DNA from: Psilocybe cubensis
Taxonomy: Eukaryota
Assembly (NCBI GenBank): GCA_017499595.2
Contig: CM039007.1
Coordinates: 682,001 to 746,000, forward strand
Reading direction: 5' to 3'
Length of the DNA: 64,000 nt
Positions 1 to 25,726 of the stretch are shown piece by piece. The translations under genes were made by a program, and so were the position numbers. The stretch's first letter is position 1. Every line of letters starts with the position of its first letter. The notes under the pieces are model-generated. The model was not told the origin of the DNA. It searched no databases and saw only the letters and a list, made by a program, of their open reading frames with translations.

Positions 1-630
1 ATGACGCGCTTCATTAAATTGCATTTGTTCTTTAACTTGATTTGGTGTACCGAGTGCCTACTTTTCTCGTTTCATGGAGCTCCTCTTGCTTTGCTTGCTC
101 TTTGCCTTTGCTCATCAACGTGTCGCTTCGCCTAGTTCACCTTTTTCGTGTTTTTATGCGTAGTGCGACCATCATCTGTCGGCTTTTTTTTTACATCAAA
201 TTTTGGTCCATCATTTTTTTTGGCGTCTTTAATCCCTTAAGGCAATCGCTCCTGTACAATGGTGTTTGCTCTTGGTACGCTCATCACGCGTAATATCTTA
301 TTCGTGCTGACTTGCTTGTCTCAGTGGCTTCGGGAGTGTGTATGGTATTCGCTAAAGGCGTTTCCACTCATCGCTTTCTATCGTACCGAGCGTTAGTCTT
401 TGCATTTTTCTACTCCGTATCAACTCATGGATTTTATTATCCTTTTTCTCTGTTTTTCATGTTTCTCCAAGTAGTATTTATCATGTTGAATTCTTGTGAT
501 GCTGTCTCATAACCTTTTCTATAAAACCTTGGTTTTTTTTTGTTTAGTGCTTTCCATCTTCGACGCTCTACCTGCCTCGAGCTCTATCATCTACAGTATT
601 CCTAAGTCTCTTTATCGTTTCAATCACATT

Positions 631-3600: not shown

Positions 3601-4038
3601 TCTTTTTGTACTCACTCAGACACTCACTCAAATAGCGGAGCGGGAATCAATCTCTCCTTCAAAACCTCCTAGGACACCCGGCATACTTTCTGGACAGAAA
3701 GATGCCAAACTCCAAGGAGGAAGCCGAAAAGCACTTAAATCAAGCACCAGGTTCAAGACCATGATGGATTCAACCGACACTAGTAAGTTATCAACATTGT
3801 ATGTGCTTCAAACCACTGACAATGTCATATATTAGTTCCCATATATGATTCACGTAACCATGCCTTCAATTTCAACACTGACCTCGACCGGTTAGACGAA
3901 TTGCTACCTAGATGGCGTCGCGGAGAGATTCCACCTAACTCCTTTGTTATGGTGGCGTACACTATGACTCAATACGAGAAGGAACGGTCATTTCATCTGT
4001 GTACCAACATACAGTATGCCGTTGTGAATCTGCTCTGA
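631..4038 (+). CDS. Multi-exon hypothetical protein: low-complexity N-terminus and putative OB-fold/ssDNA-binding-like C-terminus
   Basis: ATG at 631 (MVSINSAYAPASPK) and many short GT-AG introns. Last exon reads VPIYDSRNHAFNFNTDLDRLDELLPRWRRGEIPPNSFVMVAYTMTQYEKERSFHLCTNIQYAVVNLL*. The OB-fold call is inference from the beta-rich pattern. Confidence 0.6.
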
Positions 4039-7000
4039 TAAAATTAACAGATGGTCATGAATGTGGTATATGTTCCACTCATTTATATATCTTTGAGGCA
4101 ATACCTAGTACAGTCAATTCAGAAGAGTCAATCATGCATAATCGTAACCAAAATGTTCTACATAAACGAGCATCTCGAGAACGTCAGAGGCAGGCAGGCG
4201 CAGAATCTGCTAATTCCGATGTTGACATGCTCAACGGTGATGCTTTTGTATCCACATCAGACTCTGACCACACTTCAAACGACCATGTGTTTCCGCCACA
4301 ACCACCGTCAAAGCTTCTGATAGAGGAAATCATCAATGGATTTTGCGCTGATTCATCTGCATCTCTACTGGAGGAAGCAGGCTGCATGGTCTGCGGTCTG
4401 CTGCAGCCTTTGCATAATTTAACTCACTTGTCTATGTTTGATCATCCCCTTGACATACTCGCAGTTGAGGGAGCTACCCGTGTAGAGAGATTACATCCTG
4501 ACGACCCGGTGAAGGACATCCCGGGCCCTGTGATCGATCCTGCATGTAACCATGTATGCGATACTTGCTCTGCTGCGTTGAAAAAAGGTCATGTGCCGAG
4601 ACATTCGCTTGCAAATCATTTGTGGTTAGGTAAAATACCTTCTCAGCTGCAAGATCTTTCGTTTGCAGAGCGCATGATGATTGCTCGCATTCGGCATAAT
4701 CGCTGTCTGGTCAGAGTTTCCTCTGGGCGGGCTAAAATGACAGCAAATGTCATCATGTACTCTAATCCAACGCTGAAAGTGTATCATGAATTACCTCCTT
4801 CAAAGCCAGAACTTGACGAGGTACTTGCCTTTATATTTACAGGACCAACCCAACCCACGGAAGAAGAGTTCAAGCGTAGTCCAATGCTAGTGCGTCGCAA
4901 TAAGGTCGCAGATGCTCTGGAATGGTTGAAACTTAACCATAAGGATTATATTGATCTTGAAATATCCAAGAAAAATCTCCAGTCTTACCCGCTGATAGGT
5001 GTCCCCGTAGCTGTAGACTACAGACAGCGCAACGGTACTAATCGTATGGAGTCTACAATGAGTCTACACGACGAAGGCGAAGATGAAGGAACTGTAGACG
5101 GACCTTGTCCGTTTACTGTCCATGGCTTGAGTGGAACAGACTATGGCAATATGTCCATACAAGCTTTGAAGGCAAAAGCCTTGCAACACATAGAAAATGA
5201 AGGCAAAATGCTAGCTATTGGGCATGATCCAAAACCGCAGTCTATGTACGATAATCCTCAGGCCTATCCGCAGATGTTCCCTTGGCTATTTCCTTACGGT
5301 TATGGTGGAATAGGTCAGCATTGTCATAAGCGTAAACTTTCAGAGTCAGAACATAAGCGAATACTGCTTATGCACCATGATAAGCGTTTCCAGCGCGACC
5401 TTTATTTTCCTATTATTGCATTCAATCACGAGCAACTGAAAGGTGGCGTTACTGGTAGCTTTCTTGTTGCAAAACGCCGTAATTTTGATGCGATATCTAA
5501 AAGATTGCTCTCTATAGACAAAACGGTTCTTCAAGACATTTCCTCTCGTCTTGTAAATGGGGACCATGTATCACCTGAAACAGACAGTGAGAAAGACTGT
5601 TACAAACTTTTAGATGATCTTGACCACGTTGGAGGATATGTTAAAGGGTCAATCACGTCTAAAAAGTATATGCGCAATGAGATATGGTCTTTGCTTTCTT
5701 TCAAAGGTTGCCCAATATGGTTTATAACCTTGTCACCTGCCGATAACAGACATCCTATATCAATATATTATGCCAAAGAACAGCTGACCTTTACACCAGA
5801 CATATTACCTTCTTCTGAAAGGAATAGACTGGTTGCACAGAATCCCGTATCGGCTGCCCGTTTTTTTCATCTCATAATTGAATTGTTTATTAAACACGTG
5901 CTAGGCGTCGGATCCAATATTCATCGAGGTTTGTATGGTAAAACTTCAGCGTACTATGGTACGGTAGAACAGCAGGGAAGACTCACCTTACATTTGCATA
6001 TGTTACTATGGATTGAGAATTGCTTGTCTCCACAGCAAATCCGTGACCGTATTATGAACAACGACTCTGCATTTCAGGCGAGCCTTCTATCATATTTGGA
6101 AGGCTGTCATCAAGGCGAATTTCTTACAGGAAACATGCAGACTGTTAAAGACCGCGTGCCACATATTTACGACAAAGAAATTGATGGACTTCATTCAATT
6201 ATACAAGAGGATGACGAGGCTGTAAATTCCAGTTACGCAGATCCGACTCTAACACTCCCTATACCGGTAGAACATGCTTGTCAAGATTCCAATGGTCCGG
6301 ACCACTGCACATCATGCATTTCTAATGCTGAATGGTGGGACAATTACGAAACTACAGTCGATGATATCATATTGAAGTCCAATGTGCACAGATGCACTGT
6401 TTCATACGGTCAGCAAATTGATGACCCTGACGGATCAAAAGGTATAAAAAATATGCCTAAGGGCCCGAAAGGTTGCCTGGATTGGAATGGAAATTGTAAA
6501 GCACGATTTCCGCGAAGGCTGTACGAACAGTCTCAAGTCGATCACGTCGACGGTCACATATTTTTGAAAAAGTTGGAAGCGATGTTAAATACCTTTACTC
6601 TTCCGCTGTCGTACCTCACAAGAAGTAATACCGACGTGACATGTCTGTTGTCGGGTACTTCGATAAAAGCAATAATATATTATATATCAGACTATATTAG
6701 CAAACCCGCATTGAAAACGTATCAGATATTTACCTCTATGTATGACGTGTTTGAACGTGAAGAAAAAAAAGTTAAAGACGATGTCAAGATTGAAGGTAAA
6801 GACGCAGGCAGAAGGTTGATGCTTAAAATTGTCAACTCTCTGTCTTCTAAGATGGAGATAGGTTCTCCGATGGCCTCCTTGTATTTATTGGGCAACCCTG
6901 ATCATTACACTGATCATACCTTTGTACCTTTTTGGTGGAGAAGTTTTGTAAGTGACGCAAGGAGCAGTCATAAATCCGGTATCACTGATGACCAAGCCGC

Positions 7001-8339
7001 CCACCTACCTACCGTAGAGGATCTAGAAAATGCTGAAGATGAAGAACAGAAAGTTATATTAGCTCGACATGACGGTCATTATGTAGGTTCTAGTAATGTA
7101 GATGATTATAAATACCGCCCAGTCACTCAAGAAGACATGTCTCTATTCGACTGGATTAGATCTTATGAGCGCCGTAAGCTCACTAAAAATGAAATGGAGC
7201 GTTTGCGTAGTGAAACACTCACCTTCGAAGATGATCATGCGTCCGACATACGTGAAGGCGGGGGGATGGAAGATTTCATTGATGCATGTCTTGGTATACC
7301 TGCAGATGATGATTCTGATCAACGTGTTAAATATGACGGTGTGCGAAAAAATATTAAAATAAACAAAAGAAGTTTTGAACGTTTCACTGAGGAGCACCCT
7401 CTTTATTCCACTCACGTAGTCAAATGTGACTCATCCCGAGCGCACAATATTGTCCCCAATTTTCTAGGCGGTCCCCTTCCACGGCGCGACAAAGGCGACA
7501 GAGAGTATTATTGTTGCAGTATGCTGACCTTGTTCAAACCTTGGAGGTCTGGGTTAGATTTGAAATCATTGCATCAGACTTGGGAACATGCATTCACCAT
7601 TTACGCTTTTTCCGACCGACAGTTGAAACTAATGGATAACTTTAATCTGCGATATGAATGTTTAGACGACAGAGACGATTTTCACGCACAGTTAAGAAGG
7701 AAAGACGGAGAACAACAAGATGTTTACACGGATGAACTCTATCCTGATGGTTGCGGTCTCGACGATCAATACAACGACTTTGTCGGCCTTGAATTCGGTG
7801 AAGATCATTTAGATTATGAAGAGATTGGTGAGGCATACCGCAGAGAGGTGTTGTTAAAGCGAGAAGTAGATGGCATCATACAATCTGCAGGATTGTTTTC
7901 TAACGCCTCTAGCGATGTTACATGTCAAGAAGTCAGCATGTTCAGGCCTGCTGAATACAAGACGCATACGAGCTGGGCATCTCTAATAAAAGCTGAAAAA
8001 ATTAGACTGTTTAAACAGAAGTTGTCCGGTTACGTGCCTTCAGATCCCTCAGATGATATAACAAACATTCATATTTCCAACGAAGAGTCTACTAATGACG
8101 TCAAAGTAGTTTCTTCGGATTATCTGCTCAGGTCGTACAAGGCAAAGCAAATGGAACATAATGTGTTAGTAGATTCTACAGTCGCCGATTTCACCTTGAA
8201 TACGGAACAGGAAAGGGCTTTCCGTATTGTTGCCAATCACGCTAGTTTGCTGTCGCCTGGTCAGCTGAGGATGCATCTCGGTGGCATGGGCGGGTACTGG
8301 CAAAAGTCAAGTGATCAAATCTATCATTCATATGTTTGA
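3999..8339 (+). CDS. Helitron RepHel, N-terminal part: Zn-binding/DUF6570-like region and HUH Y2 Rep endonuclease
   Basis: CMVCG...CDTC and ANHLWLGKIPSQLQDLSFAERMMIARIR; Rep motif 1 WFITLSPAD; motif 2 YYGTVEQQGRLTLHLHMLLW (HUH); motif 3 YISDYISK (two Tyr). Intronless 1446-codon ORF; true start uncertain (first ATG 4133). Confidence 0.93.
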   Translation: MYQHTVCRCESALIKLTDGHECGICSTHLYIFEAIPSTVNSEESIMHNRNQNVLHKRASRERQRQAGAESANSDVDMLNGDAFVSTSDSDHTSNDHVFPPQPPSKLLIEEIINGFCADSSASLLEEAGCMVCGLLQPLHNLTHLSMFDHPLDILAVEGATRVERLHPDDPVKDIPGPVIDPACNHVCDTCSAALKKGHVPRHSLANHLWLGKIPSQLQDLSFAERMMIARIRHNRCLVRVSSGRAKMTANVIMYSNPTLKVYHELPPSKPELDEVLAFIFTGPTQPTEEEFKRSPMLVRRNKVADALEWLKLNHKDYIDLEISKKNLQSYPLIGVPVAVDYRQRNGTNRMESTMSLHDEGEDEGTVDGPCPFTVHGLSGTDYGNMSIQALKAKALQHIENEGKMLAIGHDPKPQSMYDNPQAYPQMFPWLFPYGYGGIGQHCHKRKLSESEHKRILLMHHDKRFQRDLYFPIIAFNHEQLKGGVTGSFLVAKRRNFDAISKRLLSIDKTVLQDISSRLVNGDHVSPETDSEKDCYKLLDDLDHVGGYVKGSITSKKYMRNEIWSLLSFKGCPIWFITLSPADNRHPISIYYAKEQLTFTPDILPSSERNRLVAQNPVSAARFFHLIIELFIKHVLGVGSNIHRGLYGKTSAYYGTVEQQGRLTLHLHMLLWIENCLSPQQIRDRIMNNDSAFQASLLSYLEGCHQGEFLTGNMQTVKDRVPHIYDKEIDGLHSIIQEDDEAVNSSYADPTLTLPIPVEHACQDSNGPDHCTSCISNAEWWDNYETTVDDIILKSNVHRCTVSYGQQIDDPDGSKGIKNMPKGPKGCLDWNGNCKARFPRRLYEQSQVDHVDGHIFLKKLEAMLNTFTLPLSYLTRSNTDVTCLLSGTSIKAIIYYISDYISKPALKTYQIFTSMYDVFEREEKKVKDDVKIEGKDAGRRLMLKIVNSLSSKMEIGSPMASLYLLGNPDHYTDHTFVPFWWRSFVSDARSSHKSGITDDQAAHLPTVEDLENAEDEEQKVILARHDGHYVGSSNVDDYKYRPVTQEDMSLFDWIRSYERRKLTKNEMERLRSETLTFEDDHASDIREGGGMEDFIDACLGIPADDDSDQRVKYDGVRKNIKINKRSFERFTEEHPLYSTHVVKCDSSRAHNIVPNFLGGPLPRRDKGDREYYCCSMLTLFKPWRSGLDLKSLHQTWEHAFTIYAFSDRQLKLMDNFNLRYECLDDRDDFHAQLRRKDGEQQDVYTDELYPDGCGLDDQYNDFVGLEFGEDHLDYEEIGEAYRREVLLKREVDGIIQSAGLFSNASSDVTCQEVSMFRPAEYKTHTSWASLIKAEKIRLFKQKLSGYVPSDPSDDITNIHISNEESTNDVKVVSSDYLLRSYKAKQMEHNVLVDSTVADFTLNTEQERAFRIVANHASLLSPGQLRMHLGGMGGYWQKSSDQIYHSYV

Positions 8340-10935
8340 GTCGAGAGGCGAATCTCACCGATTTGTGGTTCTCGCACCCACAGGTACCGCTGCTGCACTC
8401 CTCAACGGATCTACTTATCACAGTGTATTAGGAATACGGTCCAAGTCGGATCGTGGTCAAGACTTTTCAAAAAACGAAGTCGCAGTAATAAATGACGTAC
8501 GAGCTCGATTAAAGGGTGTCAAGTATATCTTTATTGATGAAATATCTATGCTGTCGTCGAGGGATTTATATGCCATTAGTAGACGTCTGTCACAAGTGTT
8601 TAACGACGATACACTGTTCGGAGGTATATCAATGATCTTAGCTGGTGACTTCGCTCAGCTACCGCCGGTAGGTAATCTCCCCTTTTATAGTCCTTCCATT
8701 AAACATACGCAAGACGCTCGCATGAAGGTGTCCGAGCAAGAAGCTACTCTAGGCAAGATATTCTGGCACCAATTCACGACTGTCGTTATTCTAAAACAAA
8801 ACATGAGACAAAAAACGCAGACTGAGGAAGACGCAAAGTTGCGCACTGCACTTGAAAACATGCGGTATGCCGCCTGTACAGACGCTGATATATCGTTCCT
8901 CAAGTCAAGGTTAGCTTCTAAACTGACGACTATTGAAGGTAAACCTATATTGACTGACCCTGCTTTTCGCAACGTATCTGTTATCACTGCGTGGAATAAT
9001 CAAAAGGATAGGTTCAATGAGCAGGGCATCGCAAGATACGCTAAAGAGAGCGGACGTACATTGCATCATTTTTTCTCTGTCGATAGTCTGGGTACACAAG
9101 AAGGAGAAACTCGCAGGCCTCGCGGACGACCATCAGGATCGTCTAAAGCAACCAAACAGACAAAGATGTCCCAGCGTCTTCAGGAAGCCCTATGGGGTCG
9201 CAGCGCCTGTTCTAGCGAACAAGTGCCAGCAAAACTTTCTCTGTGCGTAGGTCTGCCAGTTATGATACGGCATAACGACGCCACAGAGTTGTGTATCACT
9301 AAAGGACAGGAGGCTGTCGTCGTAGGATGGGAATCTTCTGTTGGTGCGTTTGGTAGACCTGTACTTGATACGCTGTTCGTGGAATTAATCAGACCGCCGA
9401 ACCCTGTATCATTAGCTGACTTGCCTGTTAATGTTGTTCCACTTACGCGAACGTCGTCTCGAGTAACATGTACTCTCAAGTCTGGCACAAAAATCAATGT
9501 AAACCGCCAGCAGGTATTAGTGCTGCCCAATTTTGCCATGACCGATTATTCGTCTCAAGGTAAGACGCGAGATTATAACTTGATACATTTAGATCATTGT
9601 AAGGATCATTCGTCTTATTACACCTGTGTATCTAGAAGTTCGAACGCCAGTGGTACCATCTTACTCGGTAGATTCGATGCGTCTAAGATTACAAAGGGTA
9701 TTAGTGGGCACCTGCGCCAGGAATTCCGTGAACTCAATATATTAGATCATATCACCACCATGAAATACAATGGACAGCTTCCAGACGGCGTGTTGCATGG
9801 ATTAAGGAATCCGACAATTCGGTCTTTCATGCTTCTCGACGTATCGCAATCCATTGGTACAGACTGGCATCCTACCTTGGCAGTCTCTTCATCAAAGCAG
9901 CTTATCAGAACTCCGGAAAAGGACGGCACCTGGTCTCTCAACAGTGTTAAGGCAATTGTCACCGACAGGGCAAAAGATAAGCGCAATAAGCGCCAACCAA
10001 TTCGCTCAGACTGTATAGGACCGAGGAAACGAATGTTGCTAAGCACACCCTCCGAGTTTGCGGTCCTACCTGTAGGTACAAAGTGGGACGCGGACAACTA
10101 CAGTTGCAGTTACGACTCCATCTTTACCGTGTTATATAACCTATGGATAAGTGCACCTGAGATGTGGACCAATAGATTCAGTGATTTGACACCGTTATTA
10201 GACAGACTCAGCGGACAATTCGCACTTGTGCAGAATGGATCAATTTCTCTAGAGAGCGCACGAAACGACGTCAGAAACGATATGCACTCACGCAGCCCGC
10301 TTGATTTTCCTATGGGTCCAAATATGACATACATTGACAGAGTTATGACCGCTGTGATGGGCCAGCGATCTTCTGGAATGTCTGTTCTCGTGTGCAGTAA
10401 ATGCGGCTACAATGACCAAAGACCCGTAATGCGACTAGGCGAATATATAAGTGTGGCACGCACTGGCGTTTTCCACGACGACTCCCAGGAGGTGTCTTCT
10501 ATTTCAGACAGTTTAGGTTTTAACCTGAGCGATGCTCAACGATTGAGTTCGAAGAATTGCCCTTCGTGTGCACAAAATCAGCATATCGTATATATGTCGC
10601 TATGCCATAAGGTTGAACGATTACCTTACATTATGACAGTGGATATATGCTCGCCACGGTTTGCTATAAACCCTGATATTATGTTCAAATCGGATAGTTT
10701 CAACGTAGAGTATAAGCTTACTGGGGTTGTCTACGGCGGGCAACATCATTTTGTTTCTCGGTATGTTGACCTGCAAGGGGACGTGTGGTTCCACGACGGC
10801 ATTACTACTGGAAATAGATGCGTAAAGGAGGGTAATGTTCATGACCTTGTTAATGATGTATCTCAATGGCTACGCATTTCCGTAAATGGGGGAAACTTGA
10901 AACATGCATTGTATGCTATTTACGCGAGGGAATAA
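8281..10935 (+). CDS. Helitron RepHel, C-terminal part: PIF1-family SF1B helicase plus C-terminal papain-fold/USP-like peptidase domain (frameshifted from Rep ORF)
   Basis: Walker A GTGKS, APTGTAA, Walker B IDEISML, AGDFAQLPPV, LKQNMRQ, MTDYSSQGKT, YTCVSRS. C-terminal NYSCSYDS...GGQHHFVSR...WFHDG. Confidence 0.92.
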   Translation: MAWAGTGKSQVIKSIIHMFESRGESHRFVVLAPTGTAAALLNGSTYHSVLGIRSKSDRGQDFSKNEVAVINDVRARLKGVKYIFIDEISMLSSRDLYAISRRLSQVFNDDTLFGGISMILAGDFAQLPPVGNLPFYSPSIKHTQDARMKVSEQEATLGKIFWHQFTTVVILKQNMRQKTQTEEDAKLRTALENMRYAACTDADISFLKSRLASKLTTIEGKPILTDPAFRNVSVITAWNNQKDRFNEQGIARYAKESGRTLHHFFSVDSLGTQEGETRRPRGRPSGSSKATKQTKMSQRLQEALWGRSACSSEQVPAKLSLCVGLPVMIRHNDATELCITKGQEAVVVGWESSVGAFGRPVLDTLFVELIRPPNPVSLADLPVNVVPLTRTSSRVTCTLKSGTKINVNRQQVLVLPNFAMTDYSSQGKTRDYNLIHLDHCKDHSSYYTCVSRSSNASGTILLGRFDASKITKGISGHLRQEFRELNILDHITTMKYNGQLPDGVLHGLRNPTIRSFMLLDVSQSIGTDWHPTLAVSSSKQLIRTPEKDGTWSLNSVKAIVTDRAKDKRNKRQPIRSDCIGPRKRMLLSTPSEFAVLPVGTKWDADNYSCSYDSIFTVLYNLWISAPEMWTNRFSDLTPLLDRLSGQFALVQNGSISLESARNDVRNDMHSRSPLDFPMGPNMTYIDRVMTAVMGQRSSGMSVLVCSKCGYNDQRPVMRLGEYISVARTGVFHDDSQEVSSISDSLGFNLSDAQRLSSKNCPSCAQNQHIVYMSLCHKVERLPYIMTVDICSPRFAINPDIMFKSDSFNVEYKLTGVVYGGQHHFVSRYVDLQGDVWFHDGITTGNRCVKEGNVHDLVNDVSQWLRISVNGGNLKHALYAIYARE

Positions 10936-11537
10936 GATGAAAATTTATCCAAAGTGTTTTATGGTTATGGAGGCCTCAGTTGATACATGCTCAGATAACA
11001 ACTGTTTATATTCATATCAGTATGGTATTTATCGTTCGATAGTGTCGCAGCGTATCAGTCTATTAGACTCAGCTGTATAATCTGAACCCATAGACTACAT
11101 TGCATCGAGCATCGTGTGGTTGAAAGGACGATCCAAAAGCGTGGGAGAATGTCGTACATGTTCCTTTAATACCTTCGCATCAAAGGGATATCGGAACTTG
11201 CCGAAATTTCGTTCACCGCTCTGTTTAAGAACTGTGCCTATCCGACTTGAACACCTTTTTCGACGTTGTCATTTGCTGCCACATCGTACCAGTATTCGTA
11301 TCTTCAAGGCTAATATACAATATTTGTTAGGCTGTAGGTTATATTACGATATATGATAGAAATATTGATGGTATTCTAAATGTGTTCAAATCGATAGTTC
11401 ATTTTGAAGAACACCTTAAACCTGTCAGCGACTGCTTTGCAGAGTCGTTGCTTTAGTATGTCTATATCTACTCACGCAATGCTATACATATAAACGGCAA
11501 ATTTTTAATTTTTTTTCTGCTTCTTTTTAGACTACCT

Positions 11538-14241
11538 ATGGCTCCCAACCCATTCTTGGACTTAGAAGCGAATGTCGATCACGGAGATTCAGAGGATGGT
11601 TCAGCCGAATCTGACGAATTTGGTGCGCATAATATTTCGTTTTACTCAGTCTCATGTCATTCCAACATACGAGATAAACCAAATTTACTCGCAGAATGCT
11701 TCATCGACGACGGAACTCAATCCCATGAAGATTGTGACGGTTCATCATCTGTGGCAATGGACAAACCCATTCCTGTTACAAAGAGAGACCGACTGGCCCT
11801 CGTAATTCAACAAATTGAAGAGAGAACACGTGGTAGATCTCACTCACTGCCCGCCTCTGATATGTACCGGGGTGTGGAACCATTGTATTCAAACGCTGAC
11901 AATCCTACTGTTTTGTCACCGCACGGAAACACTGATTCGGGCTTCGAAAATCTGCCCACGGACTATCCTACATGGAGGATTGGATGTAAAGTAAGTTTAA
12001 TACCATCGAATTAAATTTGTGTGTTGCCAACCATATCGATGAACAATACGTAAGGTCGGATACGAAGAAATCGCGGTCGCTTCTTTACTCAAAAACTCGC
12101 GCCGAGAACATCATATTCGGTCCGCGTTTTCACGCAGTTCTGTACATGGATACATATACTTGGAATGTTTGATGGATCAGCCTATGATTGACCTTATCAA
12201 AAGATCGCCCGGCATCATCGTAAAAACTACGGACGTGCTCCTGAGTCCGATCGATAAGAATGAGGCTCAGCAACTGTTGTACATGGGAGGGGACATTACG
12301 AACCTATCGGTCGGAAAATGGCTCAAGGTTAAACGAGGTGTATACAAAGGCGATGTAGGCTTTGTCGTTTCGAAAGGATCGTGGGGGGTGTCAATGCTTA
12401 TGATCCCCCGTTACGAGTACGTGTCCACCAAAACGAAGTCATCTCGTAAACGGAAGACATACACTGCGGTGCCCGCGCCTAAGCTATTCGATCCGACAGG
12501 CCTTCGTAACTCTCATTTATACATAGAATCAGGCAGAGCATCTGTCTATCGCGTAGGTGATCTGATCTTTGAGCATGGTTTGGCCCGGGTGGACTACGAT
12601 CCCAGACACGTTGCCTCATGTCGTGAAGGTCTGAGTTACGTGACGTATACATCATTTTGTATGAGTGGGCATCCCGCACTCCATCACGCGCCGATACCAA
12701 AGCCAAAGGAATGGATCATGCGAACCATGGAATGGGTGGTAATGAGATCTACAGGTTGGCTCGGAGTCATTGCGCAAGCCGACGACGATAATATGGTCGA
12801 TGTCGATATATACAACAAAGGCTGCGACCATGACGAAACTGGTCAACATTACAACGAAACTGAAATCCACAGAGTTGATACAACTACGACCCAGCTGTTG
12901 ACAACAATACGCACCGTATGGAGTGACATCTTAAAACATTTCGAAATAGGGGATTACGTAGGGGTTGACGCTGGCGTTAATGCTGGACGATCGGGTTGGG
13001 TCGTGGACATCAAGGGAGATGAAATACAACTAATCGATAAGCAAGGCACTACAAAAGACCAGCAAATCAATACAGCCGACTCGATGTTGGAGGCAAGTAT
13101 TTGTCATTTAACCGTATATATACTCTGGCTCATGCATACATCTCAGATTATATATATGCACAGGAATTTCGTTTCTCTGGGAGATGCGACGACATGTCAG
13201 CCTTCATCGCTCCTCGCGCTTATCCCAACATCACACACGACCCGATATCATCGTTGGAAAGGTGTAACTGTGATAGTGAGCAAGGTACATCATACGTTCA
13301 AAGGCTTAATCGGCATTGTCGCCGAGGTACTACAGTCCGTAAGCCCAAGAACAGGTCAACCTGAGTTGCGTTTAGTTGTAGAGCCGACTCGATATGATCC
13401 GTCGAATCCCTTCAAGAAAATTGTTTTGAACAGAGACGACGTACTGGAATACAGGTAAGCGTATTTCATTTACCGATTTGTACTCGCGCTCACGGCTTGT
13501 AGTACCTTTGAGCCTCTAAGCCTGTCGAAGACGTATGATTCGAACGCTGTCCACCAGTCTCGTAACTTCGCCAACCCATCGATCATAATAACCACAGGAA
13601 CTGAAAGCGCTGACAGTGGCAGACATACACCATTGCCTGATACTATTGAGGACACCTCGCCTGCGTGGGATCCATCTGACCATTCAGAAGATTTAACAAG
13701 CATTAGCATAGGAACCGTCGTCGTAAATTCAAGCGACGGTACCAACGTTGCATCTTTAACCACTCCTTGTAATCTTTTGTTGAAACGAGAGCTGATTGGA
13801 GTTCCTTTGACGGTGGAAGAGGCAACCGTCGATGGACACGTTTCTCCGTTGTTTGTAATCGTTCAGGAGGACGTGGATGGGCAGCTGTGCATGATGCGAT
13901 TTACACCCAATTCGAAGCGGACGTTACGGATTGAATCGACCCATATAAAGCCCAAACATCCTACCATCAAGCACGACTTTGGGTTATTAGCCATCATTGA
14001 AGGAGAACACGCGGGTAAATGCGTCAGACGTGTGCATTCTAGGAAGGATACCAATGGCGTGGTATTGGTGGTCAAACAAGTACTGCCCACTGATCGAGGA
14101 GCTGATCAAATAGTGGATGGCGAGCTATTGACGCCAACCGAAAATTGTTGTGTGGCCTATGAAACTCAAAAGAGAAAGAATGCTAATCGGAATCAGATGA
14201 GACACGAACACGATATTTACATTAGTACTCATTTGCCATAA
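11538..14241 (+). CDS. Divergent Spt5/NusG-family transcription elongation factor homolog (acidic N-terminus, NGN, several KOW domains)
   Basis: Predicted exons 11538-11622, 11696-11990, 12055-13092, 13147-13454, 13503-14241. Motifs: NPFLDLEANVD; NGN-like WRIGCK|VGYEEIAVASLL...IRSAFSRSSVHGYIYLE; KOW1 VGKWLKVKRGVYKGDVGFV, LMIPR, PAPKLFDP; KOW KHFEIGDYVGVDAGVNAGRSGWVV; KOW GVTVIVSKVHHTFKGLIGIV. Confidence 0.8.
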
Positions 14242-14415
14242 TTGTTTACTGTATGTCATATGTGTTGTATGCTCTACAATGTAACCAATACAGACATCCT
14301 CATCAACGAGTTATAAAATATATATATAGCATGCAACTATCTATATAACACTGAACATTCATGTATCGACTGCGCTAATTGTGTGGATTGATACCATGCA
14401 CTGGCATACGGTTTA

Positions 14416-15688
14416 CTAGTCGTCGAACAAACTTTCCACAGAATTATTGGGCGCCCTAAACTGTATGTCCTTGCCTGAATCTTTGTCACTGTATATCTTG
14501 GAAGCGTTGCGATCCACTGCCTCTGCTATATTTGCCAATGTTTCGTGATTTACCGCATCGGTCATCGGTTGGAGACGATTGTGTTGAATAACATCATGTC
14601 CTGCAGCGGTGGTTGGTTGGAGACGATTTAGTTGAATGACGTCTTGCCCCGCAACTGGAAGGCGGGTGCGACGACCTTTGTTGCTTGGAGGTCCCGTGAT
14701 GACGGGCACATTGATGGCCAATAAGGACACGAGGGCCTGAGGCAGAATGAAGCAATGTTGTAGATGATGGTGTAGATAAAGAACTCACAGTAGCGCTTAA
14801 TGCATACACAACTAACATTGGATATTGTTGAGCTAACTTGACGTAAATCCCGAACCACACGGCGCTGGACAGCATTATGAAAACGCTGCTGTTGTAACCT
14901 AACGCGACGGCACGCCAACGGTGCGTCAGTCTGAAAAAGGACACGCGGGTTTCTACTATTAGTATAGTCCAGCTTCGTCGAATAATCAAGATATCAGCAA
15001 TGAGTTCAGCTATATAGCAGTCAGCAATGGGCAGTCGATTAGATGAAGTGTGACTTACCTATAAGAGAAAACAACAGCAGAATGTAAGGTGGTTGGCATG
15101 GACACACAGTATCCGACTTGCAATCGGTGTTGACCTTGCACACAAATATGGCGAAAGTGGAGAAGATAATGCCGATTGCGATGAATATGACAGCGTACAG
15201 CCAGCCCCATAATACACGGAGTTGTTTGGCCTTGTGCAGTCGATTCGGTGATAGCACTATACTGGCGCGGGAGACCCTGGACAGCGCATTCGTAGTAATA
15301 AGTGGCCATGCTTGTTGTGGAAAGTGACTACGCACCACAAAACTATAAAGAACGCAAATAGTTCGACTCGGTAGGAAACAGGAAGGGCGGTAGGTGTGTC
15401 GATGGCTATACATAGCAACCCCATGATATATGTCAATCAATGTAAAATAAAAAAAGACTGGCTACAAAAAGAAAAAAAAAAAAAAAAAAAGTATCACAAC
15501 GCACCCAATTTAAACAATGTGAGGGCAATGACAAAGTCTGCAACCACAGCCACAGCCGCCAGCCCATCGTCGTACCAACACCGTTTGTCGCACCGCCTGA
15601 TAATGAGCCTGAAGACGACCAAAAAAATGGCCAAGGCATGGCTGAAAGCCAATCCGTATGCTGCGACTGTAAAATAAAGAGGAAACAA
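14416..15688 (-). CDS. PTH11-like/fungal rhodopsin-domain multi-pass membrane protein (spliced, divergent)
   Basis: Exon peptides FRLIIRRCDKRCWYDDGLAAVA, SRASIVLS, ELIADILII, ALVSLLAINVPVIT follow the order of PTH11-like TM motifs (R..WWDD, SRxSI, D..SD.L, AxSxxxCN). Confidence 0.6.
14557..14652 (-). repeat. Two-copy 48-nt tandem repeat in coding tail
   Basis: Encodes AGQDVIQLNRLQPTTA / AGHDVIQHNRLQPMTD. Confidence 0.85.
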
Positions 15689-16039
15689 ATAAGTTCGTTA
15701 GTTTGTTGTTAGAAAAGGTTTACGAAGAATGCTGCCTTACCTATATTTACGTCCATTCTTTGTTCGCTGGTTTTGAGGGGCCGCAGATGCAGGTGATGGT
15801 AAGAAGTTGGCGGGATACAAATTACGTGGCAAATGGAAAATGGGAAGGCCACCATATATGGACTTTCGTCGCTGGTCACGGATTGTTCGGCATTCAGAGC
15901 GCGGGCTCCAAACGGAAATCGGACAAGCGAACATTGGCTGATAATGCTGTTTACGGGCTACTACAACATCGAATCAGCGACTCAGACGCTGTAGACCATG
16001 AGAAGCCATGATTGAATGAAAGCCGAGACAGATATCACG

Positions 16040-18871
16040 CCCTCTTGTAGGCGATGGTGAGTAAATTTCAAACATAATCAGGATATAAAAGCTTACGATG
16101 TCATACGCGCATGACTCTGGACATGATAAACTTTAACTTTACACCAGGCGACCTACCTGAGATGTTGTCCAATATACAACGGCATTCTGGTATATGGTGT
16201 CCGTTGCTAGGAGTTGAGATAAGTGTCATAATCGAGAGTATCGCCAGGTGTCGAAGACTCACCCGAATCGCCCAGGTCATCGATACGAAGGCCATCTTGA
16301 TACCGACATGAACAGACTCAGACTCTGCATCGACCTCCAAACGAATATTTATCCGAACGAACCACTACAAGCCATATCAGTCACACTCGATGCGGTGCAG
16401 GTGCTACGGAAACGCTTTGTTTGATATAGGTCATCTTGAATACTCGTTCAGCTCGGATAGCCTGTTCGAAACAAACCTACGACGTAGGTATGGTTTATTC
16501 TTAAGCGCATTTATATGCTGGTGTATGGTTCATAGGTGTGGCATAATGATTTTGGTCCATTGAAGTGCCCTGTTGCGCGCAATTGTATTGCCTGACGTTA
16601 CACCGCAGATACAAAGACCCCAATAAATGTCCATAGTCAAGAGGCGGACTATCATGTTGAAGTACTGACACAGAGGTAAGTCTTTTCACGTTATTTGTAT
16701 CACCCTCTCTAGACTTACTTGGGATTCCTTCACGAACACGTAAAAAAAAAAAAACTGACAACGTACGAAGCCAACTAATAACATCTGCAGATTTTGCATT
16801 AAGCCACCGCATTTAGACATTTCAAATATGGGTACGTACCATGGAATACAACTTTGATCTAGGAATTTCAACTTCTCCAACATGCCGGGTCGTATCGTGT
16901 TGTATACACCTCTTATTGGAACTACCTATTATTGTGAGTGCGAAACTATACGGTGGATACACAGCAAGTCATACAGACTTTAGCGTTTAACAGTTGGCCA
17001 GACGCCGTCTTAATCCGTATCTCGCGTCCCATGCGTTGTAAATGTCTTGTGTTTTTTTGCTGAAGTTAGACGACCCATCCATTTTCAGCATGTCTCGGAC
17101 GAAGGTCTATGAACACATTGAAACTCACGACAGTACGCTCGACGTGCCACATTGCAAACACCGACTCCCGTTTAAGCAGTTTTTTACGGAAACTGGATGG
17201 GTTGAAGAGTAGGCGGTGTACAAAGAAACTTTGATCCATCTCTGTTTGGGTGATTTGAGGTTGCACGGTTGCTGAATTCCAAACCAATACACGCGCTAAC
17301 GTCCGTCGGACCGCATTTTCTATGCTATATGTCGGTGCGTCTATTGACGTTGTCCCAGTTAGGTGTGCACCGACAATGTATGAGTAAGTGTGTTGCGGAC
17401 TGGTTGATCGAACCCGGATCTCTATTTGTATGTGAGTGCCATGCTATGTTGACAATATAGGGTGAAACTCACGAGCGCCTAGCAGACGGCAATTAATCTC
17501 ACAGTCTCGCACCTATCCGTTCGTTTGTCGTAAAGACGTTGACCAAGGTGGATGGATGGTGCAAAGAGACACGAGCACTCAAATGAAAGTATATTTCAGA
17601 GGATACATTGACACTCACGGTAACACAGGCATCACGGTACATTCTTCCATCCTCTTCATACGGTTACGAGCTGTTGATCAACTATGGTTGGAGAAGTTGG
17701 AGGATGAGGGAGCGGGCGAATCTTTTGTGGTGAAGAGTATCATTGGATGGAGTGTACTGAAGGTGCGAGGTAGAAGGACTGCGTGCTGATGAGGGCACTG
17801 TTGCCTGTTGAAGACGCACATTCCTCTAGTGCACACAATTGTACGGCCATTAGCAAATGTGAAACAAAGGTAACACCTGTAAGCAGTTCTGAGTAACGGA
17901 AGTGGACAGTAGGTATTTTGGTAGATCACATGCCTGTTCAGTCCGCTTCCGGGGTTCTGTTGTGTGCATTGCGTACACTCCTCTATGTCTCCTATATTCC
18001 ATTCACATCCTGCTATGATCTTCTTCCGTACACTCCGTGGTTTCTGACGCAATGCAACATGAAGTCGTTTAGTTTTATGCCAAAGTATTTGAGAGTCAAC
18101 TGACTTATAAATGCAGTGTGATCAACAATTTTCAAAGTGCCCTCGACGGTCTGGGCGGTACGCCTCTCTATCAATACAAAAGAATCCTGACAGTAAGTAG
18201 CACCCAAACAACTTTCCCCCTCTTAGATTGTTGCGCCACTGATAACCTCAAGCAACTTTTAGGGTGGAAACCATGCGATACCAGTCACTTTTCTTCATTT
18301 CCGTCAACGGTCTACTGCGGTCAAACTTGTATCGAGTGGTATGAGACACTATAACATGACCGAATCCCCTCGATGCACTACTGAGAGAATACGGTACAAC
18401 GGGTATAATCGATATTAGTTGTCTGGAATACATTGATTCAGGTGAGAGACCGATTGCACGGTGAAAGTCGATGTATACTCACACTCCTGACTGTAGACGA
18501 GCTTGGACTGAGATCGAACGAACGAAAATAAACGGACCCTCACCGAAGCCGGTTGACAGCACGTTGGCTGTCTATCCTTCAGAACATATACTGTACTACG
18601 AATTAACAGAAAGTTAATGAGTTGAACGGGCAACGGGAGGATTGTTGCACGCCTGAACGGAATGTGCGTTTGCATTCACTGAAGGCGTCAAAACGAAGTT
18701 TGTTCTACGTGCTAACCTCGGCCCATATAATATACAGCTTATCTCAACATCTGTTGACACAGGTCTGACAAAATCATGCTTTCGAACATCCACCCAGTTT
18801 AACAGATATGGGGAAAATATCGTGGCGAGGTGAATTGCTCCTCGCTGTCTTGTTGATTGAAACGCCTCCAC
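16040..18871 (-). other. Cluster of short-exon hypothetical genes or gene relics; models unresolved
   Basis: Several short minus-strand ORFs with GT-AG intron-like gaps and some in-frame stops; no family recognised. Confidence 0.3.
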
Positions 18872-19094
18872 GTTAACCTTGAAAAAAAAAAATTCAGGAG
18901 AACTGTCACTGCCTTACATCAACGGTATACCAAAACACGACCGCGCAAACTAACGACCGCTCCATAACATCGATTGTATGCACGCCCCATCGGTGCAGGC
19001 AACGATATCATCGCGTCGGACTTCAAAAGCCTACGTAGCACGTGCTTGCATATGTCAACGACCAAACATCTGGTTAGCGAAGTTCTACTTCTAC

Positions 19095-19776
19095 ATGGAC
19101 GTCTTGCACGACAACGCTACGGAAAGTAGTTCCTACAAAAGAGCTATCGCAAGGCGTAACGCCCTACTGAGTGACCCCTTGGCAGCATCGGTCACTGAGA
19201 ACTCAGTGGAGTGTAAAAGTTGCGGGAAGAGCATATTACTGTCGAAGAAATGGCCCTTCGACCCTCAACATTGGACAAAGCATCTCAAGAGATGCGATTT
19301 TACGAGACATTCGAATAACCACAAGGTGAGTGCGAACCATCATTAAGGACACTTTTAATTTTCGTTAACATACATTGTGTAGAGCCGTTCAAAAATTCAA
19401 ATCAACAGACGGAAAAAGAGTAACTGCAACGGTCGGGCAAAGTCGTCAGCGAGGTCGATGACAGAATCAGTGCCTCCACGGCCAATAACCTCAAGCAACT
19501 CAATTCAAGAGACAGCCTCATCAACTTCACTATCGATGAAAGAGCCATTTCAACTACCGTCAACGAGGCTGATAGTAACTAGCAAAGGCAACTGTAGGTT
19601 TCCCAAACACGAATTCGTACTCTACACTGTCTAATTATAATGCAAATACAGATTTTCAGAATTTGATGGATCAGTATACTGTACGATGTCATCCTGACGT
19701 TATCACCAGGCCTCCTTCATGGGATCGCGAAAGATGGGATTGGAGTAATTTGAAGCAGCCTAGATTCGACGATTGA
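19095..19776 (+). CDS. Small C2HC-type zinc-finger protein (three exons)
   Basis: RRNALLSDPLAASVTENSVECKSCGKSILLSKKWPFDPQHWTKHLKRC (CxxC...HxxxC). Introns about 19326-19384 and 19594-19651. Ends WDWSNLKQPRFDD*. Confidence 0.6.
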
Positions 19777-19899
19777 ACTGGCGTTTACAGTACACGCAAC
19801 TTAACATAAATATTTACGTAATGTTTATGATGTTCTTATTTATATTATACAATATGATGATATCAGTATCTAATCTTATCATAGGGTGAGGGAAATCAA

Positions 19900-21927
19900 G
19901 GACTCGTATCGCCGTGCGAAGCAACGGCCCTCAACTCAAGTTTGTGTGTAGAAGATCAAATTCTTTCATGTTGATTGCGGCTCTATGATTCCGAAACGCC
20001 AGTGGATTACAACATTTGTTACAGTGAAAATGCTTTTTCGCTTCCCCGCATTTTGTAAGTGACTGTGCACGCCAAGATCTTTCCTGCCTCCTAGGAAACG
20101 CGCATCCAACTCATTATGTCTGTTTTACTGGCAGTTAGAATCAGGACCGGGGTGGATGATGGAAGATCGTTGTTGTTATTTGTATCTGAAAGATGAATGG
20201 GTAGCATGTGCTGCAATCGGCACTGTTGTAATATGTAATAGTAACTTATCCTGAGAGACAGCCGGGAGGAAGCATTTCTGAGATCAGGACGCGATTTATC
20301 ATCGAGGCGGTATGTGGGATCATCGGATATTCTGGGATGATGCGCCAGTGCACAGGAATAGGCAGATACAATTGAATGGTTAATGGGATCTCATGGTTAA
20401 TGCAGAGAATTTGCCAGGTGGATTGAAGCTAGTAGACGATGTGCAGTATGAACACCGCTGTGTAAAGGCTGTTTGGACCCCTGCGCTGCGGTTGTGTTGC
20501 CAGGGAAGAGCTTCGAAATGGCCAATGTCACTTTGAATGAAGGAGCGATCAAGCGCATATACTGGGGTTTTCGGAAGATGATGTTGATGATGAAGTATTA
20601 CTGATACATTAATATAGGCATAATTTGAGATACATATTTGACACTACGAGATATCAAGGATGGTCCCAGTTTTAATGTACATCAGAGATGATGAGAGAGA
20701 AGTCATAATTCTGAGTGAGGAGATATGGAAGTACAATAATATGTATGCGTTTCTTCTTCTTGGAGATGTAATGGATCCTTTATAGACCTCGGACAGGTCG
20801 GATATCCACTACAGTTTACCCATGTAGGTAGAATCAATGGTCGCCGTTATAGTTCATGATGATATATGTCCCACCTTGACGAGCTGGATAATTCCCTGAA
20901 GCGGACGATAATATAACCCAAGAACCAAAAAAAATCTTAAAACACTCGTTACTGGGCGCTGCCTGGATCGTCAGTCAACCGTCATTATTTCATGATCATT
21001 TTGCTCGACGTTGTGATTTATGAGGACTCCAGTTCGGTTGTCGAAGAGTGAACTACCTCAGCACTTCGCTTCGACGATATATCCTACGCTGAGTAGATAG
21101 ATAGTCTTGAATTTTCGAGGCCAGGGGCCAGAGTGCCTACGTATTATATTCATGACTGTGGTCTACCGAGTACACTGGCTTTAGCGACTCAGCGCAGCAT
21201 CGATTAGGGTCCGTCAACCGACTGCCCGCCCACACGTTTTTCGACTCTTACCCTGGAACTCCATTTGAACTATTGGTTACCCGAGCCTATATGCAGAGCT
21301 AGATCTCAACGTCTTTTTCGAATTTATATTTAATAGGGTGGAGTGTTGCGAGTCTCGACACGGTCTCCCACATGTAGCCTTCCCATCATCATTGTTTTCA
21401 CATCAGTGAAATGGAACGGCGCTTGACCAGCTCTGTCCGACGTAATCAGCCAGCGGCGCTTTGATGACGGCGATTCGACTGCCGACGGCTTCTTCGAGTC
21501 GGTGGCTTTTAATTATAGGCGCCTACGACGACGAATGAGGATTCTTGTACACCTTTGCGCTCTTACTTATGGGTCGCTTACATATCCAACTTTTTTTGAA
21601 AAATCATATAGCTTGCGGTGATACTGGAGAATAAATAGGACTTGTCAGCCATGACGAAATCGAAGAGGAACGCAGCATACAGAGATCGCAGTCGGTTTGG
21701 CATAGATCGGCAATCCTATGAGGCAACGCCAGCACTCGTAGAAGCCACGCCACAGGAGGCGGGATAGCTACAAGGTCATTGAAAAAGCCATTCTGCTGGT
21801 CCTGCGTTGAAGAAATTGATTTTCCAGCCGGGTGACGGTCAAGTAATGGATGAAGTATTGTATCGGTAACTATCGTAATCATTGTACTCTCTGACAGGCG
21901 GTTACAGACGAGATTTTCCGTGCTCAT
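19900..21927 (-). CDS. Multi-exon hypothetical protein(s)
   Basis: First exon ORF 21927-21604 (MSTENLVCNRL...), then short open segments separated by intron-like sequence; structure and 3' end uncertain. Confidence 0.3.
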
Positions 21928-22704
21928 ATATGCGAACGGAGAAGGTGAAGATGTTTTGCTCGAAATTGAAGAAAGGGCACGGTGAACGGCCTCCGGTCAC
22001 CAATTTAGAGGGCGCATTTGCGGTGTATTGAGAGGCAAAGAACAGAAAACAAGAACGATTACAGCGGTATGTGTTTCAACTTATTTTTGGCCAACCCACA
22101 TGTTAAGCGCCCCGCATTCCCGTATACCCCTGTACGTATGCCCGTTAATTATTTGATTCCGGTGAGAGAGTGTTTGCTAGACGTACCGCAAAGGAAGTGG
22201 ACGGTGCCGAACTCGGCAAGAACAACAGCAGGGTTTTGTACGTTTTACTTTCCCTTCGAAAGCTTCAAGAAGAACTCTGCTAGCTAGAAACGAAGGCCTG
22301 CTGGTCAGTGCAAAGGTGGTCCTCAATGGCGGTGTGTAGTGGTGCACTGTGGTTGGTTTGTGGTTTCCTTAGTGACAGGGGGATGGCCGGATAGATCCGG
22401 GGCAGTGGCAATGCTGTATGCAAACAAGGCCCATCCGAAGTCTGCTCTCCTCGCTGGTCTCAGACACCCAGCTTGTACATTCACAAAGTCCCTCGTCGCC
22501 ATCGCCCACAACGACGACGCAGGTTCTCCGTGCTACACACCGCTCATCATAACGACTTTTGGCTTAGAGGCACATATACCCCTTTCACCCTCTCCTTATC
22601 CAGCCAACGATCGTTCGGTCTTTTCCCCCGATACCGACCTTGCATTGATCATCGACGCTCCATCCTCATATCACGACAAGCTCAGATATCGTTTTGCGTG
22701 ACAT

Positions 22705-25700: not shown

Positions 25701-25726
25701 TCAAGACCGGGAAGCAGGGTTCATGA
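22705..25726 (+). CDS. CLA4: PAK family Ser/Thr kinase, Cla4 type (PH + CRIB/PBD + polyQ linker + kinase)
   Basis: PH domain ([10 protein letters not shown]...KWLVL); [20 protein letters not shown]; kinase motifs [32 protein letters not shown]; canonical introns. Confidence 0.95.

Follow-up and report, generated by a model that had tools for sequence, protein, structure and literature searches.

Does a mobile element in a mushroom genome carry its own elongation factor for RNA polymerase II (Pol II)? The question is raised by a stretch of 64,000 nucleotides (nt) of Psilocybe cubensis DNA (GenBank assembly GCA_017499595.2, contig CM039007.1, positions 682,001 to 746,000 of the forward strand; this whole stretch is called the window, and positions are counted from its first letter), in which a gene for a protein of the Spt5 type lies directly downstream of the RepHel open reading frame (ORF) of a Helitron transposon. 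To our knowledge, Spt5/NusG is the sole transcription factor conserved in all life, and eukaryotic Spt5 is regarded as a single essential housekeeping gene with few host-owned specialised copies. In the reading that we cautiously prefer, the window gene is an intact Spt5 paralogue from a fast-diverging family of Agaricales that serves as an accessory gene of class II (DNA) transposons, and it is here most likely a passenger of the RepHel Helitron.

The gene occupies positions 11538-14241 of the plus strand, from an ATG at 11538 to a TAA that ends at 14241; its ORF is intact and spliced at GT-AG sites. The translated window exons were 100% identical to a public protein of 744 amino acids (aa), P0002, which is named 'Transcription elongation factor SPT5 [Psilocybe cubensis]'. 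We divided the gene as follows:

11538..11622, plus strand: exon 1, the acidic N-terminus with NPFLDLEANV, which matches NRFLDIEAEV of yeast Spt5
11623..11694, plus strand: intron 1, 72 nt, GT..AG, in frame and free of stop codons; its excision yields P0002 exactly
11695..11990, plus strand: exon 2, which encodes FIDD, a linker modelled with low confidence and the first strand of NGN (WRIGCK)
11991..12054, plus strand: intron 2, 64 nt, GTAAGT..AG, which interrupts the NGN domain
12055..13454, plus strand: exon 3, read as continuous on the basis of the paralogue alignment and AlphaFold
13455..13502, plus strand: intron 3, 48 nt, GTAAGC..AG, whose removal excises an in-frame TAA at 13456-13458
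13503..14241, plus strand: exon 4, including the TAA stop

The first 60 residues of the protein contain 17 D/E versus 3 K/R. When exons 1 and 2 were translated straight through the in-frame intron 1, no Pfam family was found. The main departure from the public models concerns exon 3. P0002 splices out positions 13097-13381 as a 285-nt intron, and a second public model, P0173 (789 aa), uses different splice sites within 13097-13381 and reads part of it out of frame. The paralogues P0008, P0009, P0087, P0069, P0076 and P0153 aligned uninterrupted across this stretch, with a conserved block H.W.G..V.[IV]SK..H..KG..G.V..V...L.V...RY[DN]P..PF..I....DDV[VL]E. An AlphaFold model of the continuous exon 3 had predicted local distance difference test (pLDDT) values of 84-92 in the part omitted by the public models, and 13097-13381 was predicted to fold as part of KOW3 plus a KOW5-like barrel. 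Since the paralogues align through 13097-13381 and the predicted fold has a high pLDDT, we read exon 3 as continuous, which gives a product of 839 aa. This is likely to be the true product, and both public models would then omit a conserved KOW5-like domain. A run that we guessed to be RNA (X14) gave just two matches, of 18-21 nt, and was uninformative on expression.

The original prediction, made from the letters alone, had proposed that the spliced product follows the Spt5 architecture in order. All of the motifs that it quoted were present in the spliced product, and Pfam, PDB and AlphaFold concurred. The domain order was collinear with that of Spt5, running from an acidic FLDLEA/FIDD N-terminus through NGN, KOW1-linker, KOW2-3 and a KOW5-like barrel to a degenerate motif of the C-terminal repeat region (CTR) and a KOW6-7-like pair. 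The domains downstream of the N-terminus are located as follows:

11961..12285, plus strand: NGN, residues 118-204 of P0002, split by intron 2
12304..12657, plus strand: KOW1 plus linker-1, residues 211-328, including KWLKVKRGVYKGD
12718..13050, plus strand: KOW2-KOW3-like barrels, residues 349-459
13252..13454, plus strand: KOW5-like barrel (HRWKGVTVIVSKVHHTFKGLIGIVAEV...RYDPSNPF..DDVLEY), kept across paralogues, absent from both public models, pLDDT 84-91
13615..13677, plus strand: degenerate CTR-type motif (SGRHTP...TSPAWDPS), single copy, modelled as disordered with pLDDT <50
13768..14163, plus strand: KOW6-KOW7-like double barrel, residues 588-719, including IIEGEHAGK

The profile search of Pfam recovered Spt5-NGN at residues 122-181 of P0002 with 25.7 bits (cut-off 22.4), and KOW1_SPT5 scored 17.8 bits, under its cut-off of 22. 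The block homologous to the KOW5-like barrel in a Lentinula model, P0176, matched KOW5_SPT5 with 37.1 bits (cut-off 27). In the phmmer search against PDB chains, residues 4-298 were collinear with residues 178-480 of yeast Spt5 (7nky_Z, E=7.4e-13), and human SPT5 (4.3e-8) and plant KTF1 (8hyj_W, 5.3e-8) were also matched; among the 15 PDB matches listed, 12 were Spt5-type chains. The first AlphaFold model, made from a 20-sequence family alignment, had a mean pLDDT of 67.6 with disordered linkers, and the recognised domains were all folded with high confidence. When the AlphaFold model was compared with solved Spt5 structures, the NGN domain was superposed on 2exu with Z 10.7 and a root-mean-square deviation (rmsd) of 1.8 A over 83 residues, and on 3h7h_B with Z 10.4. 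The KOW1-linker was matched to 4ytk (Z 13.0, rmsd 2.7 A, 110/116 residues), KOW2-3 to 4ytl_A (Z 10.2, rmsd 1.6 A over 84 residues), and the C-terminal pair to KOW6-7 of human DSIF (5ohq; Z 10.4, rmsd 3.1 A, 106/110 residues; Foldseek E=1.2e-3). Foldseek with the AlphaFold model gave 49 matches at E<=1e-3, the best being 7xn7_W (4.9e-20), and all matches listed were Spt5, NusG or KOW-domain chains. Two AlphaFold models and the Pfam and PDB sequence matches thus concur on an Spt5-like identity: the window gene is a genuine paralogue of Spt5 that keeps the canonical order of NGN and KOW domains. In a six-sequence family alignment, the Glu of the IYLE strand of the NGN domain (E164) was invariant; we take this residue to be a key Spt4 contact in yeast.

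Compared with canonical Spt5 (DSIF/Spt4-Spt5), the protein keeps FLD.EAEV/FIDD, NGN, KOW1-linker1, KOW2-3, the KOW5-like barrel, TP..PAWDP and the KOW6-7-like pair in the same order, whereas it is only ~20% identical in structure-based alignments and has 839 aa versus 1063-1122 aa for the full-length yeast-type PDB chains listed. It also differs in having one degenerate CTR motif instead of a repeat array. The suggestion that the CTR is reduced to a remnant was thus borne out: a single copy is left, and it fits the family-conserved consensus TP...PAWDP.S.TP. No CTR array was found in the aligned family members, the paralogue P0153 holding two tandem copies (TPAWDPSSRTP). The fission-yeast CTR repeats are, as we assume, TPAWNSGSK, which would fit a CTR origin of the motif. 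KOWx and KOW4 gave no match reaching the Pfam cut-off in P0002 or in the scanned paralogues, a result of profile comparison to which no single-domain fold search was added. By comparison, a canonical-looking metagenomic Spt5 (L009) matched KOW4 with 63.5 bits and also KOW2, KOW5 and KOWx, and the family members rarely reach those cut-offs.

To delimit the family, a full HMMER scan was made of a library of 1.84 billion representatives clustered at 50% identity, which returned 549 representatives at E<=1e-3 and 181 at E<=1e-10; the weaker tail of the 549 probably includes canonical SPT5s. A word-index search with the single protein matched only the protein itself. The search with the family alignment found no relatives among viral contigs, and the same search of metagenome contigs gave loci. 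The source was looked up for 28 representatives or members, and all 28 were Agaricales by name, from the genera Psilocybe, Panaeolus, Flammula, Pholiota, Dendrothele, Hymenopellis, Amanita, Armillaria and Lentinula (the placement in Agaricales was checked for three species and taken from the names for the others). The members were only 23-32% identical to P0002, yet their domains stood in unchanged order and dozens of alignment columns were invariant or nearly so. The retention of domain order and invariant residues at such low identity indicates long-term selection on the protein. One candidate, P0094 (4004 aa), turned out to be a bacterial Ig-repeat protein and was rejected as a false positive. 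We also noticed that the 90% cluster of P0008/P0162 contains bacterial PspC-type peptides of 53-57 aa, which is a clustering artefact.

As the original prediction had supposed, this is not the only SPT5-like gene of the genome, and in this the multi-copy window gene again differs from canonical Spt5 as a single housekeeping gene. About 18 SPT5-named models were seen in P. cubensis, in at least three divergent lineages with 30-38% mutual identity. The identical 744-aa protein had 4 accessions on 3 contigs, two of the accessions being six numbers apart (the UniRef name gives n=6), the members of a 938-aa P. cubensis paralogue cluster were placed on 5 contigs, and P0162 and P0164 had two loci each. 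Judging from their contiguous numbering, the P. cubensis accessions appear to come from one assembly. Many Panaeolus members were located on contigs of 3.6-19 kb, as is the case for repeats in short-read assemblies, and some family members on Mb-size contigs. In a quick maximum-likelihood tree of 31 rows, the window copy was placed in a 9-row group (support 99) together with sequences from Psilocybe cyanescens, Pholiota, Flammula and other P. cubensis lineages. The clades broadly tracked host taxa, and old paralogue lineages were common to two Panaeolus species. Two metagenomic Spt5-like sequences, whose host is unknown, served as the root, which makes the tree no real probe of the monophyly of the family. 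The family is large, fast-diverging and multi-copy in several species.

The agreement of the clades with host taxa, as expected under vertical descent, and the members on Mb-size contigs could also be explained if Spt5 had expanded in this lineage for the fungus's own use, for example in specialised non-coding transcription or silencing, with transposons merely nearby. Specialised Spt5 paralogues of this kind exist in plants (SPT5L/KTF1, acting with Pol V in RNA-directed DNA methylation) and in ciliates (Spt5m of Paramecium), and the KTF1 chain 8hyj_W was among our matches. They resemble the window protein in being extra Spt5 copies with an NGN+KOW core that are dedicated to transposon-related transcription, but they are host genes in silencing, whereas the window family is multi-copy and adjoins transposase-type genes. 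The defining feature of KTF1 is its GW/WG AGO-hook repeats. Such a region is missing from the window protein, which has just 3 GW/WG dipeptides (residues 237, 361 and 441), two of them (237 and 361) inside the folded KOW1-linker/KOW2-3 ranges and the third (441) in the KOW2-3-like region modelled as strands. The identical proteins at several loci, the many members on short repeat-type contigs, the variable presence of the gene between runs of the same species label and the two kinds of transposon-type neighbours described below also speak against a host-serving expansion, which we consider decidedly unlikely. The Spt5 that is treated in PMC13085455 is, in the available part of that article, a factor of Paramecium scan RNA (scnRNA) biogenesis and not a Helitron gene.

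What, then, connects the window gene to mobile DNA? Directly upstream, and in the same orientation, lies the RepHel ORF:

4134..10935, plus strand: Helitron RepHel ORF, from the first ATG to TAA, broken by one extra base at 8292
10936..11537, plus strand: spacer of 602 nt between the RepHel stop and the ATG of the Spt5-like gene

The location immediately behind RepHel that the original prediction gave was therefore correct. RepHel was recognised by its Pfam domains (DUF6570, 7.3e-40; Helitron_like_N, 2.5e-33; PIF1, 5.7e-24). The original prediction had described it as intronless and of 7 kb; a single open frame was not present in the window, where the Walker-A (GxxGTGKS) region contains the frame-shifting additional base at 8292. 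This base was absent from 56 of 64 reads of X12, an independent run with the same species label, and with the frame restored in these reads the ORF is a RepHel of the autonomous type. Since most of the X12 reads lack it, the break is an assembly error or a private mutation, and RepHel is probably intact elsewhere. An exact look-up of the two RepHel ORF translations in the protein collection gave no entry.

The nearest published layout is that of the HELPO1 Helitrons of Pleurotus ostreatus, in which, according to the accessible part of the report (PMC4289320), one to four expressed 'cap' genes are located downstream of RepHel in the same orientation, and the capB relatives of other basidiomycetes keep RepHel upstream. 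The co-oriented, RepHel-downstream position is thus shared with the window gene. The products differ in that capA, capA2, capB and capC are described there as lacking conserved domains (PMC4289320); our comparison with the window family was limited to layout.

Sequencing runs with the same species label indicated that the gene is part of a variable segment. Sampled words of the gene were all found in runs X1 and X7, whereas the fraction was 0.09 in X10 and 0.00 in X11, and the X10 and X11 contigs matched the window from 19940 onward only. Position 19940 is therefore the right edge of a strain-variable segment that runs left beyond the window. Taken together, the limit of the X10/X11 contigs, the absence of the gene and the identical reference copies suggest a strain-polymorphic unit of ~20 kb or more, which would be a large Helitron, a composite or a segmental duplication with its left end beyond the window. 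The X12 variant fractions ranged from ~12% to ~50%, on the element and its flanks alike, which hints at more than two copies.

Some further observations were made at the edges of this segment. The X10/X11 contigs and some X12 reads switch to other sequence exactly at 19940, and a 48-nt segment at 19895-19942 behaves in X12 as a high-copy repeat, its two edges having 118 and 155 loose-ended reads. A second break in X12 was seen at 4026/4027, where 29 reads leave the window sequence after 4026 and 59 reads join it before 4027; the two sides do not overlap, as a target-site duplication would require. The break lies 10 nt ahead of the stop of an upstream multi-exon gene and ~100 nt ahead of the RepHel ATG. 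The two 30-nt consensus strings of its loose ends were absent from the 64-kb window, so that the break is no simple empty site within the 64 kb; it may mark either a true boundary of the element or a further insertion in one haplotype. The multi-exon gene itself (~600-4035, plus strand) ends just upstream of RepHel and resembles the element in depth and variant pattern, and it may be part of the same variable unit; it gave no Pfam family, and its largest exon (3223-3564) had no usable match in the ESM-Atlas. The ORFs at 14.4-19.3 kb gave no Pfam family either. Host genes follow from 22700-26000 on, starting with a PAK-type kinase (PBD 1.6e-9, Pkinase 4.8e-27), beyond which are located DUF5648, a fungal-type kinase fragment and an IBR/RBR-type gene.

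A number of results weigh against this Helitron as the carrier of an active gene, and they are considered together here. The search for Helitron termini via short inverted repeats gave nothing usable, no perfect hairpin (stem of at least 6 bp) followed by CTRR-T was found in 14242-20000, and no repeats of at least 11 nt were shared between the 5' and 3' zones. The sequence CTAG|T at 14416-14420, read by eye, is only a weak candidate for a 3' end. The X12 DNA read depth was even over 1-20000 (37.8-63.7 per 667-nt bin), which means that RepHel and the Spt5-like gene do not exceed their flanks in copy number, as judged within a stretch that holds no single-copy baseline; the duplicated unit may therefore be at least 20 kb long. 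Among the X12 variants in 1-19000, C>T or G>A accounted for 13 of 25 places and CpG transitions for at least 5 of the 11 coding variants, and the non-synonymous ones amounted to 2 of 2 in the Spt5-like gene and 7 of 9 in RepHel. This pattern, although the numbers are small, may be that expected of methylated, individually decaying transposon copies.

These variants could also indicate that the gene is a functionless passenger, namely a captured copy of the host SPT5 in decay, and the reduction of the CTR to one degenerate motif and the unrecognised KOWx-KOW4 would agree with this. Against it stand the intact ORF with clean splice sites and the recognised domains, all of which are predicted to fold with high confidence. 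In addition, it would take purifying selection over a long time to keep the domain order and key residues in at least nine genera at 23-32% identity. Decay of a functionless copy is therefore an explanation to which we give very little credence.

The remaining points of this group concern the relatives of the gene. The original prediction called for linkage of homologs to mobile elements. Of RepHel itself nothing was seen there: it was near none of the 11 related loci and none of the 177 stored proteins. At the four true family loci, the upstream sequence extends for only ~380-900 bp. With flanks this short, the absence of RepHel is weak evidence, as RepHel may lie off the contig. Likewise, no fused RepHel-Spt5 protein was found among 2432 longer-protein candidates, which is also weak evidence. 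Both relatives with a readable context adjoin a different type of transposon, probably EnSpm/Plavaka, and not RepHel.

The first of these relatives is present in two metagenome contigs, L001 and L002, which represent one fungal locus (99.8% identity over 6.8 kb). Downstream of the family member encoded there, which is 30.5% identical with P0002 and 34% with P0162, lies a gene of three exons in the same orientation (L002 3120-6125). This gene has CxxC motifs and an '...IYIDWFNPY...CLNLP...' core, and its best ESM-Atlas neighbours (score 0.98, 222/256 shared features) were Basidiomycota clusters with Transposase_21 in 11-31% of members; Plavaka clusters came next (score 0.89). The transposase-like ORFs of L002 had no Pfam match even at E<=10 and no PDB match, and this blank makes the identity of the gene as a probable EnSpm/Plavaka-like transposase a lead only. 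An inverted repeat of at least 960 bp with 94.5% identity brackets the locus (L001 4-966 versus L002 9828-8886), and its right copy duplicates the promoter and first exon of the Spt5-like gene. A minus-strand gene at ~6930-8908 of L002 was also located between the inverted repeats (the locus comprises L001 1-7365 / L002 1-10118).

The second relative is P0176, a public gene model from a 6-kb contig of Lentinula detonsa. In its 1570 aa, a family member (residues 1 to ~990) is followed by an unrelated linker and by a C-terminal part that corresponds to the N-terminus of a weakly similar transposase-like protein, ending '...HVDFFNP'. This model is probably a fusion of two adjacent genes. In both L002 and P0176, the transposase was putatively identified by a language-model lead together with motifs. 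The relatives of the window gene are thus linked to mobile DNA, and the claim that such a gene is encoded by a mobile element agrees with L001/L002 and P0176; the narrower claim, that the gene lies inside this Helitron, lacked the termini that would place it there. Linkage to transposons is supported, while carriage by the Helitron is not proven.

The neighbours of the relatives may indicate that the window gene, too, belongs to an EnSpm/Plavaka-like terminal inverted repeat (TIR) transposon or to a larger composite or duplicated unit, RepHel being a nested neighbour and not the carrier. The relatives in L001/L002 and P0176 are directly upstream of a probable Transposase_21/Plavaka-type gene, L001/L002 has inverted repeats of at least 960 bp, and no Helitron termini were recognised in the window. 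The flat X12 depth over 20 kb and the variable segment, which spans at least 1 to 19939, would also be accommodated. On the other hand, no relative of the L002 transposase-like ORFs or of the P0176 C-terminus was present in the 64-kb window, and no inverted repeats were found in its first 30 kb. Moreover, the 9-row tree group of the window copy (support 99) is separate from the two transposase-adjacent members, and the identity of the transposase is a language-model lead for which Pfam and PDB were blank. We consider this explanation unlikely, and we retain the RepHel Helitron as the most likely carrier of the window copy.

If both types of neighbour are taken at face value, it is conceivable, as a tentative extension of the passenger reading, that mushroom DNA transposons from two or more unrelated superfamilies, Helitron and EnSpm/Plavaka-like, each bring an Spt5 with them and pass it between one another. 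As a eukaryotic counterpart of plasmid-borne RfaH/ActX, this Spt5 would load on Pol II via NGN without control by the CTR or KOW4. Long transcripts could then escape termination or silencing, or transposition could be steered to transcribed DNA. A precedent for such exchange is provided by the TET/JBP genes, which are carried by 11 fungal DNA-transposon lineages including Plavaka, EnSpm and Helitron and are thought to counter silencing (PMC12730594, in the part available). The presence of TET/JBP across these lineages indicates that accessory genes do pass between element types. The parallel consists in a host-type chromatin/transcription gene serving as accessory of unrelated DNA transposons in Agaricomycetes; the protein family is a different one, and Spt5, KOW and NGN have 0 occurrences each in the available part of PMC12730594. 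Likewise, no report of transposon-encoded or transposon-associated Spt5 paralogues in fungi was found in the literature, as far as the accessible portions of the sources go. The window protein has already been annotated by similarity as SPT5; in our reading it represents a mobile-DNA-linked branch of the Spt5/NusG family.

How could an Spt5 of its own be of use to a transposon? In solved Pol II-DSIF complexes, NGN and KOW1-linker form a clamp over DNA; these are the best-conserved parts of the family protein, and Pol II-DSIF complexes were the top structural matches of the AlphaFold model. Like other NGN domains of Spt5/NusG, that of the window protein would accordingly bind the Pol II clamp, perhaps together with Spt4, and the KOW1-linker and later KOW barrels would be arranged along the DNA and RNA exit paths. 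The CTR array of canonical Spt5 is a kinase-controlled platform for capping, Paf1C/Rtf1 and other factors. With this phospho-repeat platform mostly lost and the KOWx-KOW4 RNA clamp unrecognised, the protein could be an Spt5 that rides Pol II free of host regulatory inputs on pausing, termination and silencing. The outcome may be uninterrupted transcription of the element, by anti-termination or anti-silencing in the manner of RfaH/ActX, or displacement of the host Spt5. The suggestion of the original prediction, that the factor may help Pol II through RepHel or compete with host Spt5, would fit this scheme. Alternatively, the protein may act in targeting, as an adaptor through which the transposase reaches transcribed DNA.

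The comparison with bacteria is one of logic and not of descent. RfaH acts on horizontally acquired operons, and RfaH and ActX, like the putative transposon Spt5, are NGN-KOW factors (NusG paralogues) specialised for mobile or horizontally acquired genes. Both differ in belonging to another domain of life and in having a single KOW, and RfaH is recruited via the ops DNA site and a fold switch. ActX is encoded in plasmid pilus operons, as stated in the part of PMC7819879 that was available.

Whichever element carries the window copy, the automated name 'Transcription elongation factor SPT5' can mislead orthology and gene-count analyses in Agaricales. If our reading is true, the family would be the first eukaryotic case of mobile DNA supplying its own Pol II elongation factor, and it would join TET/JBP as the second known instance in which transposons of fungi trade chromatin/transcription genes of host type. 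Its members, which have little of the CTR left and in which no KOWx-4 was recognised, would also be naturally occurring 'minimal' forms of Spt5 for asking which of its modules serve what.

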